IMG/VR virus record: IMGVR_UViG_3300044843_001102
Source of the DNA: an uncultured virus (IMG/VR IMGVR_UViG_3300044843_001102)
Lineage: Duplodnaviria; Heunggongvirae; Uroviricota; Caudoviricetes
Length of the DNA: 64,000 bases
Direction: 5' to 3' (one strand)
This document shows, piece after piece, positions 7,161 to 39,563 of this stretch. A program made the translations under genes and the position numbers. The notes beneath the pieces were generated by a model. That model worked only from the letters and a program-made list of their open reading frames with translations, was not told the DNA's origin and searched no databases. Positions within the stretch are counted from its first letter, which is position 1; the number at the start of each line of letters is the position of its first letter.

Positions 7161-8089
7161 TAGCGTAACAAGTGAGCGAGAATTTGATCGCTTAATTTTT
7201 TTGATTCAACAAGCTTTTTTCTTGGTTTCTTGTTTTCTTGTAATGCAGTTTGCTGTCCACCAGTATAACTTTGACCAGTCTGTTTAATTTTTTCATATGC
7301 TGGCGTGGTTGGTTCTGCTACGGTTGCCTGTAGTTCTTTTTCAAACTTATCGAAATAAAGTTTAAGATTCGTTAATAAGTAATCAAAGAATATTTTTCTA
7401 TCTTTTGCATTGTCTAATAATCTATAACCATTCTTAATTGTTGTACCGATACCTCTCTTATTCCAAGTTCTTAAAGCAATATTTCTACCTGTTAAGTCTT
7501 GTCCTGGAATTGTAAAGGATTCTTCTGTTTGTTCTTCTTTAGTTTTTGCTTTATCGCTTTCTTCTTTCTTTCCTTGCGTTTCAACATCGATCATTTTTTC
7601 ATCTTCTTCGTCATCTTCTTCGTCATCATCACCAATTTTAATTTTTAGATCTTCTTGTTCTTGTAGAGTTTCAGTTGCTTCAGGTGGAAGATCTGCTTTT
7701 ACAGCAGCGGGTATCTCTTCTTTACTTAACTCACCTTCTGCTTGTTCTTCGGCAGAGAATTTAGCATCTGCTGCTAAAAGAATATCAATTGCAGCGCGAA
7801 TAATATGTGCTCTATAGGACTTTCTTTGTTCTTCACTTGTTGTGAGTTTTTTGTAGTCAGACTCAACAGCAGGAATAATAGCAGTTAATACGGATTCAAG
7901 TTCATTTTCTCCAGTAGAAGCTCCAGGGACAACAGATTCTTTTTCTTGTAATAATTTACGAATTGCTGTTCTTAATATTTTTTCTTCTTTTAATGTTTGT
8001 TTTTGTTCTTCTAGTCTCTCAACATGCTTTTGTTCAAGATACTTTCTAACAAACATTCTTAACTTTTTTTCTTCTACTTTATTAGACAT
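7160..8089 (-). CDS. Hypothetical acidic protein (probable virion/head protein)
   Basis: Long ORF in the late cluster with many L-x-E motifs. Confidence 0.5.
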   Translation of the reverse strand: MSNKVEEKKLRMFVRKYLEQKHVERLEEQKQTLKEEKILRTAIRKLLQEKESVVPGASTGENELESVLTAIIPAVESDYKKLTTSEEQRKSYRAHIIRAAIDILLAADAKFSAEEQAEGELSKEEIPAAVKADLPPEATETLQEQEDLKIKIGDDDEEDDEEDEKMIDVETQGKKEESDKAKTKEEQTEESFTIPGQDLTGRNIALRTWNKRGIGTTIKNGYRLLDNAKDRKIFFDYLLTNLKLYFDKFEKELQATVAEPTTPAYEKIKQTGQSYTGGQQTALQENKKPRKKLVESKKLSDQILAHLLR

Positions 8090-25876: not shown

Positions 25877-26100
25877 GCGTTGTGCCCTGAGGTATTCAAC
25901 TTTCGCTGGGTGTTAGAAAGAAACGTAATCGTTGTCCACCCATAATCTACCCTTGACTGAATAGATGAAGTGTGATACCCTATGGCGGAGGGGTCATGCT
26001 TGATAATACAGATCCAGGGGTCTAGTCCATACCCACTGTTTGGGTGCCTCCGCCTATGCTGTTCACCTACCCGTGGTAGAGGAGTGTTGCTATGTAATCC

Positions 26101-26268
26101 AGCAGGGGAGCAGTACCACATGCATAATAACGCATTTAACGATGGTTGTCAACAGGTCGGGATAGTGTATTTGGCTGGTTCACTGGTCATCCATTTCCTG
26201 CCCATTATCTATTCTCTCCTACCACGATTATTTAACAGCATCGTTTAGGCTTCTCTATCTCCCCTGCT
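26101..26268 (+). ncRNA. Candidate rod-shaped ncRNA (6S-like architecture)
   Basis: AGCAGGGGAG/CTCCCCTGCT closing stem; inner AACGATG/CATCGTT and GGATAGTG/CATTATCT stems with plus-strand G-U pairs. Confidence 0.45.
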
Positions 26269-27370
26269 ATCTACTGATTACCTATTCGTATACCATGTGT
26301 GAATGTATGTGATAGTGCAATCTATCTAACACCATTTACTTACCCTCTGACTTCTTCTTTGGTCTAGGTGGTTCTGGTGTCTTTGGATAGGGATAGGTTA
26401 CTCGTTTATCCAGCAGGACTGATTGCTTATCTACTTTCTCTACCCACTGGTTTAGTTTGTGCATGTGGTATGCCATCCATCCCATGGGAATGAATACAAC
26501 AATGCTGAGACCGATAATGAGAATGAGTTCGTTCCTAGTCATGCGATTGTTCCTCCCTCAGTAGATTGAGTGTGTGTCTTGCAATGTTCTCTGCCATTGA
26601 AAACTCACCCTCATTCATTCTAGTGTTTGCTCTTTCTCTATCCGCAAGGTAACGTGCTAGGTCAAGGATCAAATACAAACTCTTCTTATCTTCCAGTGCC
26701 ATGTTTATTCCTCCCGATTGGTTGTTATGGTTCATCTATTCGTTATAGGCTTCCGTCTTCCATTTCATCGGAGTAGTCCCATTCTTCATCGTCATCAATG
26801 TCATAGGGATACTGGTCGTCGTTCCACCCTTCTTCTTCCACGAATAGATGTTCGCGACATAGCTTACCATTCTGATCAATATACAAACGATCGTAATGCT
26901 GTCCTCTTGCTTCCGCAAGGAACTTGTATTGTTCGATATGACGGCGCATCCATGCGATCATTTGACACCTCCGTTTAATGATTTGATTGCGCTGTATAGA
27001 AAGCCAACCACAACCCCAACGAATAGCACGGGCCAGAATAGACCGAGAACAGAAATGGCAAAGAGTTTATCCCTTGCTTTGTATTGCGAATAATCCTTCG
27101 TATTCTCTGATAGATCAATCGCGACGTAGCAAGTCGTAATCAGCACACATAGGGCATACATTGTATAGAAAGACATTCGCTATCTCCGTTTATCTATCCT
27201 GCCCACAGGTGGTCAAGAGTATCTGAATAATCGAAACCGATCTCATCATCGTTTGAACGTGAAACATCAACGGATGGATCATAGTCGTTGTCCTCGCAGT
27301 AATCATATGCATATTCAAACAACTCGATTAGATCATTTCCATTCATGTTTCCCCCATTCACGATTGTTCG

Positions 27371-27448
27371 TGGTGCCAGCAGGTGGACTCGAACCACCAT
27401 CACAATCCATACCAAGGATTGGCTCTATTCCAATTAAGCTATGCTGGC
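27371..27448 (-). tRNA. tRNA-Thr(GGT)
   Basis: Cloverleaf, anticodon loop TTGGTAT, encoded CCA. Confidence 0.9.
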
Positions 27449-27454
27449 GAATGT

Positions 27455-27531
27455 GCTAGGGCAGGACTTACAGAACCGTACATTCCAATCGGGTTCATGC
27501 CTAATACCATTGGGTTCGTGGTTGCCCTAGC
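27455..27531 (-). ncRNA. Candidate 77-nt structured RNA containing CCGAUUGGAA
   Basis: GCTAGGGCA/TGCCCTAGC closing stem between a promoter and tRNA-Thr. Confidence 0.5.
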
Positions 27532-27544
27532 GATCGTGGGAATG

Positions 27545-27573
27545 ATTATAGCAAGTCCCACGATTTCTGTCAA
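27545..27573 (-). promoter_or_regulatory. Perfect-consensus sigma70 promoter
   Basis: TTGACA-17-TATAAT; 9-bp inverted repeat ATCGTGGGA/TCCCACGAT flanks the -10 box. Confidence 0.85.
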
Positions 27574-27917
27574 GCTCGATTCTCAACCTTCGTTGCCACC
27601 AAACCAATGGACATGGTGAGCGGAAGGATGGAAAGCATAAGCAGAAGCAGTTGAGAGGTATTCATTGTTCGTCCTATCTGTTTAGGTGTTTATTCTTTCT
27701 CGGACATATAAAGAGTGAAGGAAGCCCAAACGAAAGTGACTCCGATCACAAGCAACCAATCCATTCTATCCTCCCGCAGTCTATTGAATGAACCAAACCC
27801 ACTTTGGACTGTAACGGCTGGATACTGTTCGATGAACCAAGCCACCGCTGAAATGTGTGATTACTTTATTGTAGGTCGGCACTTTCAATTTGAACGTCAT
27901 GTTGTCTCCTTCGTGTG

Positions 27918-27994
27918 TGGTAGGGGCAGGTGGACTTGAACCACCGACTTTCGCCTTATCAGAGCGATGCTCTAACCAACTGAACTATGCCCCT
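27918..27994 (-). tRNA. tRNA-Ile(GAT)
   Basis: Cloverleaf, loop CTGATAA, CCA. Confidence 0.92.
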
Positions 27995-28562
27995 GTTGAG
28001 TCTGCTGAATATTCACAAACACTTCATCAAACGTTCCATCAAATACCTTTGTGCAGTTGGATGTGATCTGTGGACTCAGCGCACCCCATCCAATGCGTGG
28101 GCGACGTTGAGCTTTGCATTGATCGCCATACGTTTGCTTCTTGCTAATCTGCACGGCTTCCCATAGCGGGTCATTGTTTGCAAGCGAAACACCATACATA
28201 ACGAAACGATCATTCCGCCAATCTGTTGCATCAAGGAACAGTAGCGTATCCCATGCTTCGGTTGGACCGAATGAGATCGGGCCAGTTGAAGTGAAACACT
28301 TGACTTCCAGCCTGCCGAATGAATCTGAACGGAGATCGCCTGGAAGTTTGACCTTTCCCTTCGTGCCCTTGGGCCACAACGCAGTCTGATCATTCATATG
28401 ATTCTGAACGATAAACTTGGCGATGTTTTCGCTAACTTCCTCTGGCATGTTGGGCAATCGGCTTTTCAATCCAAGCCTCTTGTTTCGTTTCTCAATTTTC
28501 AGTGCATAGTCCTTGAAGTCTGCAAACGACTCTCTCAGTTCTGCCTCTGTGTAAACATCCAT
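27972..28562 (-). CDS. Bsp6I-family type II restriction endonuclease-like protein
   Basis: R.PNMPE.VSEN, GD...EVK (PD-D/ExK), SFGP...WD.L.F, TYGDQ...QRRPR recalled as family motifs. Confidence 0.7.
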   Translation of the reverse strand: MDVYTEAELRESFADFKDYALKIEKRNKRLGLKSRLPNMPEEVSENIAKFIVQNHMNDQTALWPKGTKGKVKLPGDLRSDSFGRLEVKCFTSTGPISFGPTEAWDTLLFLDATDWRNDRFVMYGVSLANNDPLWEAVQISKKQTYGDQCKAQRRPRIGWGALSPQITSNCTKVFDGTFDEVFVNIQQTQQGHSSVG

Positions 28563-28600
28563 TCGTATCTCCGCTCGGTCTATTGTTTATTCATTATCGG

Positions 28601-28672
28601 TGACCTTGCCGGGACTCGAACCCGGATTTAGAGATTGAAAGTCTCTCGTCCTAACCTTTGGACGACAAGGCC
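28601..28672 (-). tRNA. tRNA-Glu(TTC)
   Basis: Cloverleaf, loop CTTTCAA; CCA not encoded. Confidence 0.9.
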
Positions 28673-29194
28673 GATTGTGGGATTGTTAGTCCCGTTTGTT
28701 CCTACCACTTGAAACCAATGACTCTTTGCTCTTGCGACTTCGCTAGAAGTTCCTGCCTTTTCTTGTATTCAGAAACCGCTTTAGTCCAGTCTTCCTTTTC
28801 CTGAACAACTGTTTCACGAACCTTGTCCTTGATCTGCTTCACCACTTTAGTTGCATCCATCATTTACCTCAATCAGTTGGGGAGTTGGTGCTCGAATAGA
28901 AGTTCGCCCTGTGGACTCTGAATGATTTTTACCTTGCCCGACAGAACGAGAGACACAAGGGCAACACCAATCTGAAACTTGTTCTCGTCCTTTTCTACTT
29001 CAGTTTCCCGTAGCAGTCTAGCGAACAAAGGATCATGCTTGTTATGAAAATCAATCAGTTCTTCATTCGTGTGAACATCATACATGATGACCTCCTGCAT
29101 TTGTTAGTCCCAGAAACTTTCGTCGTAGATCCAAGAACGAAGTTGCCAATCAATAACGATCATTTGTTCCCTCCGTCTATTGTTTATTCGTATC

Positions 29195-29270
29195 TGGTGG
29201 ATCAGGAGGGGATCGAACCCACGACCTACGGATTAAGAGTCCGCTGCTCTACCGACTGAGCTACTGATCC
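29195..29270 (-). tRNA. tRNA-Lys(CTT)
   Basis: Cloverleaf, loop CTCTTAA, CCA. Confidence 0.93.
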
Positions 29271-29281
29271 ATTTATTCGTT

Positions 29282-29357
29282 TGGCTCCCCGAGTGTGAAT
29301 CGAACACACGACAAAGTGATTAACAGTCACTCGCTCTACCAACTGAGCTATCGGGAA
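29282..29357 (-). tRNA. tRNA-Asn(GTT)
   Basis: Cloverleaf, loop CTGTTAA, G73, CCA. Confidence 0.92.
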
Positions 29358-29373
29358 ATTGAACACCTATTCA

Positions 29374-29694
29374 CTACACAGAGCGAATGGCGTCGATGAC
29401 ATCTTGAATATTCGATGTATTGTAAACCACCTTGCTGAAGATTTCGACAACCCGATGTGTATCGGCCAGTTGATCGTTGAGGTCATCCAGTTTGCCGTTC
29501 ATAACCCACCGACGAATGTCCATTCGTTGGAGTTCGCCATCATCGCGATTTTCCATATCGTCAAGTTCCATACAACGATCACTAATATCGTTACACTTGA
29601 CTTCCGTCTCTTCGATTTCCTGTCGCAGGGCGATCATGTGTTCCTGCGCCTTTTGCATAACCTCAGCAATCGTCATCTTGCTTGCATCAAACAT
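29374..29694 (-). CDS. Hypothetical coiled-coil protein
   Basis: GGAGG RBS, 106 aa. Confidence 0.6.
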   Translation of the reverse strand: MFDASKMTIAEVMQKAQEHMIALRQEIEETEVKCNDISDRCMELDDMENRDDGELQRMDIRRWVMNGKLDDLNDQLADTHRVVEIFSKVVYNTSNIQDVIDAIRSV

Positions 29695-29941
29695 ATGGAA
29701 CCTCCGTCTATTGATTGGGTGTTATGGGCGAACCCAACCACGCTGAAGCAACTCCCTTACCTGATTATCAAATAGCCTTGCATTTTCTTGTTGAACTTTG
29801 CGAACCAACGCAACATCGCTGGGGTTTTCGGATTCGTAAATGCTTTCGCTAAGGTTTACCTGTTCAATCCAGAACTGTTTGAACCGCTTGGTATCTTTGT
29901 GAATGAAACAGAACAGCATTGTGAAACCTCTGTCTATTGAT

Positions 29942-30016
29942 TGGCTTGCACAAGCGGGAGTCGAACCCGCATCACGCGTATATTCACGCGCACTTTCCAT
30001 TTAGACGATTGTGCAA
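29942..30016 (-). ncRNA. tRNA-like RNA with aberrant anticodon loop and extended acceptor stem
   Basis: Perfect T-arm GCGGG-TTCGACT-CCCGC, 8-bp TTGCACAA/TTGTGCAA stem, GCCA end; CGCGT-GAATAT-ACGCG with a 6- or 8-nt loop. Confidence 0.7.
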
Positions 30017-30019
30017 GTA

Positions 30020-30128
30020 GCCGTGCTTGTCATCCACGGTTGGATGGGTTAGCTTCCAATCGGCGTAACCGTCGCCTGCTGTGCTGTTCAACCACAGCGG
30101 GATGGGTTCACTTCCAATCGGTGGAACC
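30020..30128 (-). ncRNA. Two tandem copies of a two-hairpin RNA motif (CCGAUUGGAA loop)
   Basis: Compensatory stem changes between the copies; conserved loop, bulged C and CATCC linker. Confidence 0.6.
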
Positions 30129-30138
30129 ACACCGCGAA

Positions 30139-30223
30139 TGGTGGCTTGCGTCCAACTGCATTTCCCTACAGCGGGAAACCGTTGATTGAACCCCATTCTG
30201 TTTGGGGTCTATCGCAAGCCACC
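30139..30223 (-). ncRNA. Candidate branched RNA ending in ACCA
   Basis: 11-bp GGTGGCTTGCG/CGCAAGCCACC stem enclosing two hairpins. Confidence 0.5.
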
Positions 30224-30229
30224 GTTTGA

Positions 30230-31045
30230 CTACTCGGCGTCGGTCGCCTCAATCTCGTCATCGGCATCGACCGACTCAGCATCGAGATCGAGGTCATCGC
30301 CGTCATCCGAATCCGCTTCAGCGTCAACCGAAGCGGTATTCAGCGAACCGAGGACACCGGCGAGAGTGTCGCGAGCGGCGATTGCCTCGTCACGCTCGGC
30401 GCGAACCTTACGGAGCAGATCGAGCAACTCAGCCTTGGTCAGCTTATCTTCCGACTTGCCACCCTGTTGAGCGAACGCAAGCGCCGCCTGCGGATTGAGA
30501 TACTGACCATCGGCGTTGCACTCGAACGCCAACTTTGCCTTGGACGGACGACCAGCGCCAAACGGCTCAACCTTGCTGGTCTCAGGGTTAACGAACAAAC
30601 GAGGAGCCTTCTTGGTAGCAGTCTTGGTAGCCATGGTATTCACCTTCTTGGTATTGGTATTGATATTGGAAACAACCGCCGAAACCTTTTCAGTATTAGC
30701 GCAGTCAGCGGTACGCTGCACCAACCTTTCAACAATCTTACCACCCTCAGAGATTAGCGTCAAGGCCACATCCTTATCCGCAATCTTGTAAACCGAGAAC
30801 GAACTTCCGGGTTGCTGAGTCTCAAAGATAACCGAACGCATACGCAGACTCGACAGGATCGACTTGACCTTCTGTTGCGAACGAGCAACATCGTTGTTGA
30901 ACTGCGACATGATTTGCGGTTTACCCGCAACAGTGATGAACGACGCACCCTTGGGGTTTTCGTTCAGGATCGACAGGACTTGCGAATAGAACGGCAAGTC
31001 AGCGTTCGTGTAGAGGAAATTTCCGATCTTGGTGTTCGTGCTCAT
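30230..31045 (-). CDS. GC-rich early protein with an acidic C-terminal tail
   Basis: 271 aa, GAGG RBS, first long ORF downstream of the promoter array. Confidence 0.75.
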   Translation of the reverse strand: MSTNTKIGNFLYTNADLPFYSQVLSILNENPKGASFITVAGKPQIMSQFNNDVARSQQKVKSILSSLRMRSVIFETQQPGSSFSVYKIADKDVALTLISEGGKIVERLVQRTADCANTEKVSAVVSNINTNTKKVNTMATKTATKKAPRLFVNPETSKVEPFGAGRPSKAKLAFECNADGQYLNPQAALAFAQQGGKSEDKLTKAELLDLLRKVRAERDEAIAARDTLAGVLGSLNTASVDAEADSDDGDDLDLDAESVDADDEIEATDAE

Positions 31046-31087
31046 TGTAACCTCGCATGGTTAGGGGTTTGCTTCACACTTACTCGG

Positions 31088-31161
31088 CCCGCCTTGCAAG
31101 ACTCGAACTTGCGACCCTCTGCTTAGAAGGCAGATGCTCTATCCAACTGAGCTAAAGGCGG
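31088..31161 (-). tRNA. tRNA-Arg(TCT)
   Basis: Cloverleaf, loop CTTCTAA; CCA not encoded. Confidence 0.92.
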
Positions 31162-31289
31162 ATTAATCGTACTCACTCTACGTCACGCACTTATTGCGTG
31201 TCGTCTTGATTGCGATGTGGAAGGTCTCGTGACTTCGCAGACCACGGCAGTCCATCATCTTTGCAGAGCAACTCTGTGCTCGCAATCGT

Positions 31290-31308
31290 TATTCAGTTAT
31301 CAAAGATC
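31290..31308 (-). promoter_or_regulatory. rrn-type boxA-like antitermination site
   Basis: GATCTTTGATAACTGAATA just downstream of a leader hairpin and promoter. Confidence 0.6.
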
Positions 31309-31351
31309 CGATGCGGAGTGGGTGAACGCGAAGCTCACCGCCGACTTAGGG

Positions 31352-32010
31352 ATTGTACACCAAGTAGATTCGCTTGTCAAGAGCTTGCAGTATCACGTTT
31401 CCGATTTCTGCTTCTCTCCGTCGTTTCGCGAACCGCTCAGGCTCGCTCACATTCAGGAGTTTACCACAACTTCGAACCGTTGTCAAGCCCTCGCAGTATC
31501 GCGTTTCTCAGTACCGCGTTTCTTAATCTCGGCAACCGCTCAGGTCGCCGTCACAGTCAGGATCTTACCACAACTCGGAACCGCTGTCAATACCTCGCGG
31601 TCTCACGTTTCGGTTCAGTTAGCCGTTCAGCAGAATAACCAATTTGGCAATCGTCAGACCAAGAACAATACCCTTCAGTGCGTCATTCGTAATCGACATT
31701 TCGCCTCCTTGCGGAACCATTCCGCGTTTAGTAGTCTACCACAACCAGATTCGGTTGTCAAGCCCTCGCAGTATCACGTTTGCGAATCTACTCGGTTTTC
31801 AAGGAGCGTTTGCGGTTTCAGAGCGCGAAGCCCGTTTCCCGCGTTGACCTTAGTAGCTTACCACAACTTGGAACGGTTGTCAAGACCTCGCAGTCTCGCG
31901 TTCCCCGGTTTGCCGTTTGCCGTTTCGAGAAACCGCGCAGGTCTCTCGCTTTGACTTAGGTATCTTACCCGATCTGTTTGCTGGCGTCAAGACCTCTCAG
32001 TCTGCCGTTT
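31352..32010 (-). repeat. Tandem array of six sigma70 promoters with a conserved upstream element
   Basis: -35 boxes at 31375, 31481, 31585, 31756, 31878 and 31985, each 17 bp from a TAnnnT -10 box; shared AAACGyGAkACyGCGAGG upstream. Confidence 0.9.
31619..31699 (-). CDS. 26-aa hydrophobic micropeptide MSITNDALKGIVLGLTIAKLVILLNG
   Basis: AAGGAGG RBS 4 nt before the ATG, directly downstream of one array promoter. Confidence 0.7.
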   Translation of the reverse strand: MSITNDALKGIVLGLTIAKLVILLNG

Positions 32011-32795
32011 GGCTTTCAGTCCCTCATATACAAAGTGAGGCATAAAGATCTTTTTTTTCAGTGTCACATATGCTTTCAGCGGAATATGCTGAGGAAGTTA
32101 AATGCCTACTTTATCGAGAATGATTATTAAGTAATAAAGTATTCAACAATCAAATAAATAGAACTATTAATCTTTATTAAGTTCTAATCTTTATTAAGTT
32201 TTAAAGGTATTAACTCTTCATATCTTAAATAATCAAGAACAATTCTTGGATTCTCCAGAGCAACTATTTTATAAGAGTATCTGTGATCCCGAATCATATG
32301 TGATGATGATTCAATAGGTTTTTCCTTAGACGAGACTACAAATAATACTTCATTACTTGCTGTTTTATAACCAGATAAAATTTTATACATGTACCAAACA
32401 TGTGGAGCGGTTAAAACAATGTCTCCAACCTCATATTCGTATTCATCATACAAGATAGTTATTCCGTTTTCGATTTTTTCTTTTATACCATGAATATTGT
32501 TTGCCACGGAATAATTTGACATATCGCCCTCTCTCTCGTATATGCGGGCAGGGGTATAGGGGTGTAGTAGTGGGGTGGAGTAGTACTATCCCACTATATG
32601 TCTACTACCTTTTACCAATCTCGCATGGACGAAGCAACATCACGATAATAACCAAGATCAACATCCAAATCGTCAACATCATAGATTTCGATTAGATCAT
32701 CTTCTTTGTCTCCGCTGGACTTCGATTCCTTAGAAACAATCTGCTTCTTTGGTTTCTTTCGTTTCACTACCTTTTCTGCGAAAACTGAATCAGTA

Positions 32796-39204: not shown

Positions 39205-39563
39205 TGGTGGATCTGGCGGGAGTCGAACCCGCGTCTCACATAGTTTTTATGATTACTCATTCACAGGAATAGTCAAGCACCCAACCTACCCTTGACAAAA
39301 CACCTGGGTTACAGGGACTTCATACTGATTTATTCAGGGCAAAACCAGTTAGAAAAGCCGATGAATCTTGTTTTCGATAAGATTCCAACCTATCCAAACT
39401 TATTTTACAGAGTGTTTGGAGACTCCGTGATTTAAGCCGCTACGGCGTAATCAAAAGCAACGTTGTCGTTGGCAATTAAACATTTAAGCGTTTTTACGAT
39501 GCCTCGCTCCCCATCGTCCTGCATAATCATAAAACTCTACCCGATCGATACCATTTCAGACCC
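39205..39563 (-). ncRNA. ssrA: tmRNA (one-piece), tag ANDNVAFDYAVAA
   Basis: GGGTCTG/CAGATCC acceptor stem with G3-U70, GGTTCGACTCC T-arm, ACCA end; tag ORF 39473-39432. Confidence 0.95.

Follow-up and report, generated by a model that had tools for sequence, protein, structure and literature searches.

Tandem promoter units with pentaloop hairpins and boxA-like sites at the head of a phage tRNA operon

Tandem promoters stand at the head of bacterial ribosomal RNA (rrn) operons, in their P1-P2 layout, and in phage T7, where A1, A2 and A3 are tandem early promoters. One idea is that tethering of boxA helps leader-trailer helices to form. At the nut sites of phage lambda, the order is not boxB before boxA, and the boxB loop is purine-rich and GNRA-like. 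Here these systems are compared with an array of six promoter units found at positions 32010 to 31290, minus strand, of a 64,000-nt stretch of DNA (the window), which is the first 64 kb of the 77-kb virus record IMGVR_UViG_3300044843_001102. The array precedes a tRNA operon and carries conserved pentaloop hairpins, two boxA-like sites and a long-range RNA pairing. With moderate confidence, we read it as an rrn-style control region in which multiple promoters, hairpins at the 5′ end, boxA and a leader helix act with host Nus factors to express a phage tRNA operon that is for the most part untranslated.

As with T7 A1-A3, several promoters that appear to be strong and of the host-polymerase type are clustered at the head of a transcription unit. 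The array differs from that cluster in having six promoters, a shared upstream box, per-promoter hairpins, boxA and tRNA genes downstream. Its tandem strong promoters, ∼100-170 bp apart, recall the P1-P2 layout of rrn operons. Like an rrn leader, the array has a hairpin and then a boxA-like site in an untranslated leader, with stable RNA genes downstream (PMC10250234, PMC6614797, PMC13753749); hairpin before boxA is also the boxB, boxA, boxC order of rrn leaders. The strand following boxA pairs with a distant downstream strand, which recalls the rrn leader-trailer helix (PMC10250234). The array differs from an rrn leader in having six promoters rather than two, a pentaloop hairpin for each (unit 3 excepted, see below) and two boxA sites; moreover, its helix encloses promoters rather than rRNA, and it is phage-borne with no rRNA gene. 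In Bacillus subtilis, rrn operons may begin with a small 5′-terminal hairpin followed by boxA-like elements, the same order as in the array (PMC13753749).

Lambda nut sites resemble the array in combining a short boxA with a small hairpin that has a pentaloop and follows closely on early promoters (PMC2724277). In contrast to nut sites, the conserved hairpin of the array lies upstream of boxA or in a unit without boxA, its loops are U-N-(A/C)-G-C and not GNRA-like, and no N-like protein turned up in the 37%-complete genome, in which no dedicated search for one was made. Proteins of the N type are small and show little conservation. Outside rrn operons, boxA in suhB and other genes controls Rho on weakly translated or untranslated transcripts (PMC5725501), and boxA is found upstream of suhB and of CRISPR operons (PMC13753749). 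Those are single sites in cellular genes, whereas the boxA-like sites described here lie within a phage multi-promoter array. Finally, the first four loop bases of the hairpins fit the Y-N-M-G pattern of YNMG tetraloops in 18 of 18 cases (UGAG, UUCG, UGCG or UAAG) (PMC2346598). Unlike those tetraloops, the loops of the array are pentaloops, with a fifth base (C in 17 and A in one of the 18) before the closing G.

Taken singly, tandem early promoters, leaders with boxA and 5′ hairpins are known features. New here are the quantified covariation of the hairpins, the two-boxA layout in both clades of relatives, the survey of boxA in phage contigs, and the pairing of the post-boxA strand with the last promoter spacer. 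A limited literature search found no described counterpart of the conserved pentaloop or of the helix between leader strand and promoter spacer.

Promoter units and pentaloop hairpins

Each of the six units contains an upstream box, a TTGAC(A/G) −35 element, a 17-nt spacer and a TAnnnT −10 element, as had been claimed in a preliminary description of the region. The −35 elements start at 31990, 31883, 31761, 31590, 31486 and 31380, leaving gaps of 107, 122, 171, 104 and 106 nt, which agrees with the spacing given there. Box and promoter are located at 31993-32010 and 31962-31990 for unit 1 (TTGACG, 17 nt, TAAGAT; three mismatches to the box pattern), 31886-31903 and 31855-31883 for unit 2 (TTGACA, 17 nt, TAAGCT, with a TG extension), 31764-31781 and 31733-31761 for unit 3 (no mismatch to the box pattern), 31593-31610 and 31562-31590 for unit 4, 31489-31506 and 31458-31486 for unit 5, and 31383-31400 and 31352-31380 for unit 6 (TTGACA, 17 nt, TACAAT). 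A consensus promoter scan lists five of the units; unit 2, with the −35 at 31883 and TAAGCT as its −10, is below the threshold of the scan. A TG extension is present in four of the six promoters.

The upstream box is 18 nt long, GC-rich, and abuts each −35. Its pattern, AAACGYGAKACYGCGAGG, has six matches in the 64 kb at three mismatches or fewer, all within the array, where 0.09 would be expected from shuffled sequence (none of 100 shuffles reaches six). The box may be a protein site. Direct-repeat analysis groups five of the six units into one 67-nt family with 64% to 81% identity, and the units are therefore paralogues. Terminator-like sites were not found in any unit between 31290 and 32010; the bases following the hairpins are A/G-rich, with no U-tract. 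Sequence and comparison support the earlier proposal that polymerase would enter at several promoters here, and they place this entry region ahead of an operon.

An A-tract element at 32027-32058 (minus strand) precedes the first −35 by ∼40-70 nt and recurs in near-identical form ahead of the first unit in two related loci (L023 and L024, below), where its flanks differ. It may be an UP-like element or a factor-binding site. Two candidates were set aside. Six loci in viral contigs match the upstream box plus −35, but all are single matches in coding sequence and were attributed to chance. Antisense open reading frames (ORFs) of 245 and 142 amino acids over the array have no Pfam match and are broken up in G001 and L023, and were therefore not taken as genes.

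Relatives were located in two ways. A scan for promoter plus hairpin top led to a 72-kb viral record, G001 (also L020), in which the array, the tRNA-Arg gene and a homologue (47% identity) of P0001, the 271-aa product of the first protein gene downstream, are syntenic. A search of metagenome contigs with a P0001 alignment gave nine loci. With G001 included, seven loci have at least 550 nt upstream, and six of these (L022, L023, L024, L026, L028 and L020) carry the array; the seventh, L025, starts within the leader. Because L024 repeats L023, the relatives provide five distinct arrays, or six with that of the window. When close relatives were sought, neither P0001 nor the upstream 112-aa protein led to a usable locus.

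The six distinct arrays have three to six units each (three or four in relatives where the contig permits), and each is followed by the same two genes, for tRNA-Arg and the 271-aa protein, P0001 identity across the relatives being 42% to 75%. They form two clades: clade I comprises the window, L022 and L023/L024, and clade II comprises G001, L026 and L028. Among the 24 promoter units, the −35 is TTGACA in 21 and TTGACG in three. Both clades share the −35, the −10 and a run rich in G ahead of the −35; spacers and upstream boxes differ, each clade conserving its own box. Clade II units (L020 3190-3220 and equivalents in L026 and L028) contain a palindrome, GGAATC-N4-GATTCC, in the place of the AAACG…GCGAGG box of clade I. 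The palindrome could be a site bound by a dimer, or it could fold as an RNA hairpin when transcripts read through it.

Five units of the window specify a hairpin with a C-G-closed pentaloop, at exactly the coordinates first reported. These are at 31948-31926 in unit 1 (9 bp, loop UGCGC, −13.7 kcal/mol, z −3.39), 31833-31821 in unit 2 (4 bp, loop UUCGC, within an outer 4-bp stem; kept in L023 with one pair changed), 31550-31530 in unit 4 (8 bp, loop UGAGC, z −4.32), 31446-31428 in unit 5 (7 bp, loop UGAGC) and 31339-31321 in unit 6 (7 bp, loop UUCGC). Hairpins start ∼6-8 nt past the predicted transcription starts (2 nt in unit 3, whose hairpin is of another kind). In four of the five, stability clearly exceeds that of shuffled sequences (z −2.5 to −4.3). 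A G-U pair is present on the sense strand of every one, as had been noted, and due to these pairs the sense hairpins are more stable than the antisense forms, by 1.4-3.7 kcal/mol. A census of the whole 77-kb record for C-G-closed hairpins of at least 4 bp with the loop T(G/T)(A/C/G)GC gave five matches, all within the array on the minus strand, and none on the plus strand; control censuses of C-G-closed pentaloop hairpins with any loop gave 176 and 169.

Across the six arrays, 18 of the 24 units carry a C-G-closed pentaloop hairpin. These were placed in an ungapped alignment (A2; 18 rows, 16 of them distinct) with a 9-bp structure. Paired cells make up 81.3% of the alignment versus 59.1% in column shuffles, and 35 cells are changed on both sides versus 12.8 in shuffles; none of 500 shuffles reaches either value. 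When the partner column was moved by one to three positions, 28% to 44% of cells were paired. The stems thus vary in sequence and stay paired through compensatory change, as the preliminary description had suggested from the window. Compensatory changes between orthologues separate window unit 4 from its counterpart in L022, and window unit 6 from those in L022 and L023. The unit 5 hairpin is identical in the distant relative G001 (19 of 19 nt), despite the 47% identity of the neighbouring protein.

The closing C-G pair, loop U1 and loop G4 are invariant (18/18) across the homologous arrays. Loop positions 2 (G/U/A) and 3 (A/C) vary, even among orthologues, where UGCGC is exchanged with UGAGC, UUCGC with UGCGA, and UAAGC with UGAGC; the loops observed in total are UGAGC, UUCGC, UGCGC, UAAGC and UGCGA. 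A covariance model was built from A2 and applied to 175 kb (the window, its relatives and another tRNA-rich phage contig). Array hairpins account for all 22 matches that score 21.5 bits or more; the next-best match reaches 17 bits. On this sequence evidence, the hairpins are under selection. Rfam searches of the window, at gathering threshold and at E ≤5, gave tRNAs and the transfer-messenger RNA (tmRNA) only.

A scan of genome contigs for a promoter plus CCTGAGCGGTT gave no link to a host rrn promoter. The 22 loci found are in unrelated taxa, about the number estimated by hand for chance (∼16); four are the D-arm of tRNA-Ser and three are a shared Propionibacteriales leader. Separately, the string CCTGAGCGGTTCG occurs in G001 behind a promoter that precedes an AAA ATPase gene (L016 ∼7850-7900; G001:C1:27859-27869, minus strand). 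At that place it is part of the loop of another predicted hairpin, which the hairpin model does not detect.

Unit 3 lacks the pentaloop hairpin. It has a triloop hairpin of 6 bp (31725-31711), then a strong Shine-Dalgarno site and a 26-codon ORF encoding a hydrophobic peptide, MSITNDALKGIVLGLTIAKLVILLNG (31699-31619), both on the minus strand. The 3′ end of this ORF is identical in L022, and its product has no match in Pfam. One RNA-library contig joins 31565 to 31737, representing a variant that lacks unit 3 or an assembly collapse.

boxA-like sites and the long-range helix

boxA-like sequences had been reported after both UUCGC units, and both are present: GCTCCTTGAAAA at 31807-31796 in unit 2, identical in L023 and L024, and GGATCTTTGATAAC at 31309-31296 in unit 6, both on the minus strand. 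Each begins 13-14 nt past the hairpin. Their position is conserved in relatives, whose boxA units likewise have a hairpin and then boxA. All four complete arrays (window, L023/L024, G001 and L026) have two such sites, the earlier of which belongs to the first or second unit and the later to the last; in all, 10 of the 24 units carry one. Alignment A4 extends from the last unit through the tRNA in six rows and has largely unalignable flanks. Past the last −10, just one block stays invariant before the tRNA is reached. This block, G.TCT.TGA.AA, is the core of the last boxA-like site. Clade II sites read (C/A)GCTCT(T/A/G)TGACAAC. The boxA-like sites match the published gamma-proteobacterial boxA consensus, GYTCTTTAANA (PMC5725501), at 8-10 of 11 positions, a consensus that may not be that of the host. 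Inspection by eye found no TAnnnT 16-18 nt behind either site of the window. A second small hairpin, at 31281-31266 (minus strand), lies ∼15 nt past the last boxA and differs from the conserved pentaloop hairpin; it is kept in five of the six A4 rows with one covarying pair, and is absent in L022.

Viral contigs were scanned for a consensus promoter followed, after 25-55 nt, by CTCTTTGAYAAC. The scan gave 18 loci in 11 sequence families, and a G, which the scan did not require, precedes the motif in nine of the 11 (P ∼1e-4 at 25% G, by hand arithmetic). Several loci have a hairpin shortly before the motif. Promoter, hairpin and GCTCTTTGACAAC are therefore a recurrent design in phage contigs, which supports the boxA reading; by the same token, the boxA part of the array is not new, since the motif recurs behind promoters elsewhere. 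Unrelated phage contigs (L052, L054-L056, L058-L063, L065 and L067-L069) have a consensus promoter and then GCTCTTTGA(C/T)AAC, several with a hairpin shortly before the motif, and some of these viral contigs have a Shine-Dalgarno site and start codon directly after the motif. They look like promoter-proximal boxA leaders outside lambdoid phages.

An inverted-repeat search revealed that the 14 nt directly past the first boxA-like site (31795-31782, the 5′ arm) have their complement in the last-promoter spacer (31373-31360, the 3′ arm), 408 nt downstream on the same strand, with a pairing energy of −24.3 kcal/mol. The equivalent pairing of 14-15 nt is found in each of the four complete arrays (−24.3, −26.3, −25.5 and −25.5 kcal/mol). 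The last-promoter spacer is in each case the best pairing site in the downstream array, and none of 500 shuffled spacers pairs as well. Two double changes, both compensatory, separate the helix of the window from that of L023, and between the clades the paired strands are wholly different. G-U wobbles of the helix fall on the sense strand. The helix appears in both the minimum-free-energy and the centroid fold of an RNA begun at unit 2. Note that both strands occur together only in transcripts from promoters upstream of the first boxA, and that the helix would enclose units 3-5. This pairing, the 26-codon ORF of unit 3 and the tRNA operon downstream had all been overlooked in the preliminary description.

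Downstream operon and genomic setting

Downstream of the array, on the same strand, are a 130-nt leader, a tRNA-Arg gene (anticodon TCT; 31161-31086), the P0001 gene (31045-30230), a tRNA-like gene, small ORFs, and genes for tRNA-Asn, Lys, Glu, Ile and Thr. The tRNA or tRNA-like genes after P0001 number six and extend down to 27371. The predicted fold of the leader (31345-31162) is not exceptional (z −1.18). The tRNA-like gene (region 29942-30178, minus strand) received a four-base anticodon call (ARAGORN ‘???’; Rfam tRNA model, 37 bits) and lies beside two tandem 51-nt repeats (30020-30128). Low-depth contigs from three of four RNA libraries cover 29990-30178, which may correspond to a stable RNA.

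P0001 is the first protein gene after the array in all relatives. Its 271-aa product has no match in Pfam and belongs to no Pfam or PHROG family. A PDB sequence search gave only a weak match, to uL23 (E 0.016), which was taken as chance. The structure model has a mean predicted local distance difference test (pLDDT) score of 69.8, and ∼90 in the N-terminal domain. Foldseek gives weak winged-helix (MarR-type) matches, the best with E 0.0097 and none reaching 0.001. The middle of the protein (…NPET..VE.FG.GRPSK.KLAFEC…) is highly conserved, and its tail is acidic. P0001 is a candidate regulator of the array.

The source is an uncultured freshwater jumbo phage. DNA runs containing the window stretch are lake-water metagenomes, and the record was judged 37% complete. 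Nearly all genes of the window are on the minus strand, among them genes for GroEL, PhoH, glycosyltransferases and endolysin-like proteins; there are also 15 tRNA or tRNA-like genes and one tmRNA gene. When compared with published phage records, the array DNA matches over the tRNA-Arg only, P0001 has no match, and GroEL has its best match (43% identity) in a Flavobacterium phage. These comparisons thus point to no cultured relative and to no host. NusB and NusG families were not found in the two phage fragments (37% and 39% complete), and host Nus factors would therefore be required.

The block 26000-32000 has a G+C content of 44% to 54%, within a genome of ∼28% to 40%. Besides the array, it comprises seven tRNA or tRNA-like genes as well as small ORFs whose ribosome-binding context is repeated (repeat families D2-D4 and D8); G001 has the same block. 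The phage-encoded tmRNA lies at 39205-39563 (minus strand) and has the tag ANDNVAFDYAVAA, that of G001 having the tag ANDNVETFNYALAA.

Proposed function and alternatives

The sequence elements, their exclusivity to the array, their conservation and their covariation are observed; that the promoters are active, that Nus factors bind, that elongation resists Rho, what the hairpins do and when the array is used are inferred. In the rrn-style reading, six tandem promoters of the host primary-sigma type would load host RNA polymerase at many points. Each transcript would open, a few bases past its start, with a stable stem-loop of 7-9 bp with C-G closing and the loop U-N-(A/C)-G-C; such stem-loops would act as boxB-like or 5′-terminal stems, providing quick local folding, protection of the 5′ end, or both. 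With boxA in the second and last units, every transcript would cross a boxA before the tRNA, whichever promoter it came from. Recruitment of host NusB/NusE by boxA would give Rho-resistant elongation on ribosome-free RNA, as on bacterial rrn operons. In transcripts from the upstream promoters, the 14-nt strand past the first boxA and the last-promoter spacer would close the middle of the array into one domain, similar to a small leader helix. The outcome would be a highly expressed operon containing tRNA-Arg, the 271-aa protein, further tRNAs, small ORFs and structured RNA to ∼27.4 kb.

A more specific proposal is that the array is an N-independent device that captures the host rRNA antitermination and RNA-chaperone complex, such that boxA tethers the leader, the helix closes over internal promoters, and C-UNMGC-G hairpins constitute a new class of promoter-proximal recognition element for a phage or host protein. 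We put this forward tentatively and consider it unlikely as a whole, at a level well below the general rrn-style reading.

Several observations weigh against the rrn-style reading. Four of the six window units lack a boxA-like site. The short boxA core, TCTTTGANAA, is not rare in this AT-rich record, where it occurs six times on both strands versus 1.6 in shuffles, and just one of the six occurrences is within the array. The boxA-like sites also resemble the −35 context of the array promoters themselves (…CTTGACAA…) and could be decayed promoters. The 4-bp hairpin of unit 2, taken alone, is no better than shuffles (z −0.44), and the unit b hairpin of L026 has two stem mismatches. Left out of the 18 aligned hairpins were window unit 3, with its triloop, and five clade II boxA units, which have other, longer hairpins. 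The 18 were also chosen by eye before alignment, which favours pairing, and because the A2 rows mix paralogues with orthologues, the counts of paired and doubly changed cells do not represent independent events. A distance of ∼6-8 nt from the start is rather far for classic 5′-end protection. Finally, contigs from RNA libraries (four runs) cover the array in part, at a depth of 2-6 that may reflect DNA carry-over. Most of the depth in these libraries comes from foreign tRNA-Arg, and the low-depth pieces (31338-31521, 31543-31737, 31737-31861 and 31172-31306) do not demonstrate transcription.

The pentaloop hairpins might instead be boxB-like sites for a dedicated phage or host RNA-binding protein that modifies RNA polymerase, making the array a new nut-like signal. 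We consider this improbable. Invariance of the closing pair, U1 and G4, near-invariance of C5 (17/18) and variation of the stems are typical of protein-bound hairpins. Also in favour are the confinement of the hairpins to the array and the sequence identity kept between relatives in which identity of the adjacent protein is down to 47%. YNMG-type loops can be protein targets, for example the enterovirus oriL tetraloop bound by protein 3C (PMC5633025). On the other hand, loop positions 2 and 3 vary freely among orthologues within the limits of the stability motif, such that a structural role suffices, and no candidate protein was identified in the 37%-complete phage genome. The position of the hairpin, before boxA or in a unit without boxA, also argues against it. 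Of the preliminary description, the entry region, the compensated hairpins and the conserved boxA positions are supported. Its nut-like antitermination signal and its immediate-early timing are conjectural; the hairpin is upstream of boxA, boxA is present in two of six units, and no N-like protein was identified, although no search aimed at one was made.

It is similarly doubtful that the array is a promoter battery with stabilising 5′ hairpins only, in which the boxA-like sites arose by chance or from decayed −35 regions and there is no antitermination. Tandem strong early promoters of this sort are familiar from T7 A1-A3, and the commonness of the short boxA core and its likeness to the −35 context, both noted above, fit such an origin. 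The loops, in their first four bases, match the YNMG motif of stable tetraloops (PMC2346598). What this account does not predict is that the boxA core is the sole invariant block in an otherwise unalignable leader, that two boxA-like sites occupy equivalent places in every complete array, that the same motif is found behind promoters in nine unrelated families of phage contigs, or that a covarying long-range arm lies immediately past the first boxA.

Action at the level of DNA appears very improbable. In this case, the boxes and spacer palindromes would be operators (for P0001, for example), and the 14-nt inverted repeats 408 bp apart would mark an invertible promoter segment or an origin. The upstream box is clade-conserved and abuts every −35, the clade II palindrome GGAATC-N4-GATTCC is found at the same place, the N-terminal domain of P0001 is weakly like a MarR-type winged helix, and the inverted repeats flank three promoters. 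However, the G-U wobbles of hairpins and helix pair on the sense strand only, and the stems covary rather than hold one sequence. Cumulative GC skew has no turning point at the array, which does not support an origin. No recombinase was noticed beside the array, although none was searched for, and the inverted form was not seen in the RNA runs, the sole runs examined.

The other suggestion made earlier, that each unit yields a separate small decoy RNA, can be given almost no weight: in its favour, a conserved hairpin accompanies each of the six strong promoters, and the top of the UGAGC hairpins shares 11 nt with the D-arm of a tRNA-Ser of some bacteria, but that likeness is 11 nt in a different fold, and with neither terminator nor U-tract past any hairpin, transcripts must run on into the next unit.

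Clusters of tRNA genes are common in large phages, and how such untranslated, Rho-exposed operons are transcribed at a high level has been little studied. The locus described here suggests an answer, namely imitation of the design of the host rRNA operon by means of multiple promoters, boxA and a leader helix. The locus also provides a compact set of conserved, covarying RNA elements, and its promoter-hairpin cassettes may be reusable as strong, insulated expression parts.

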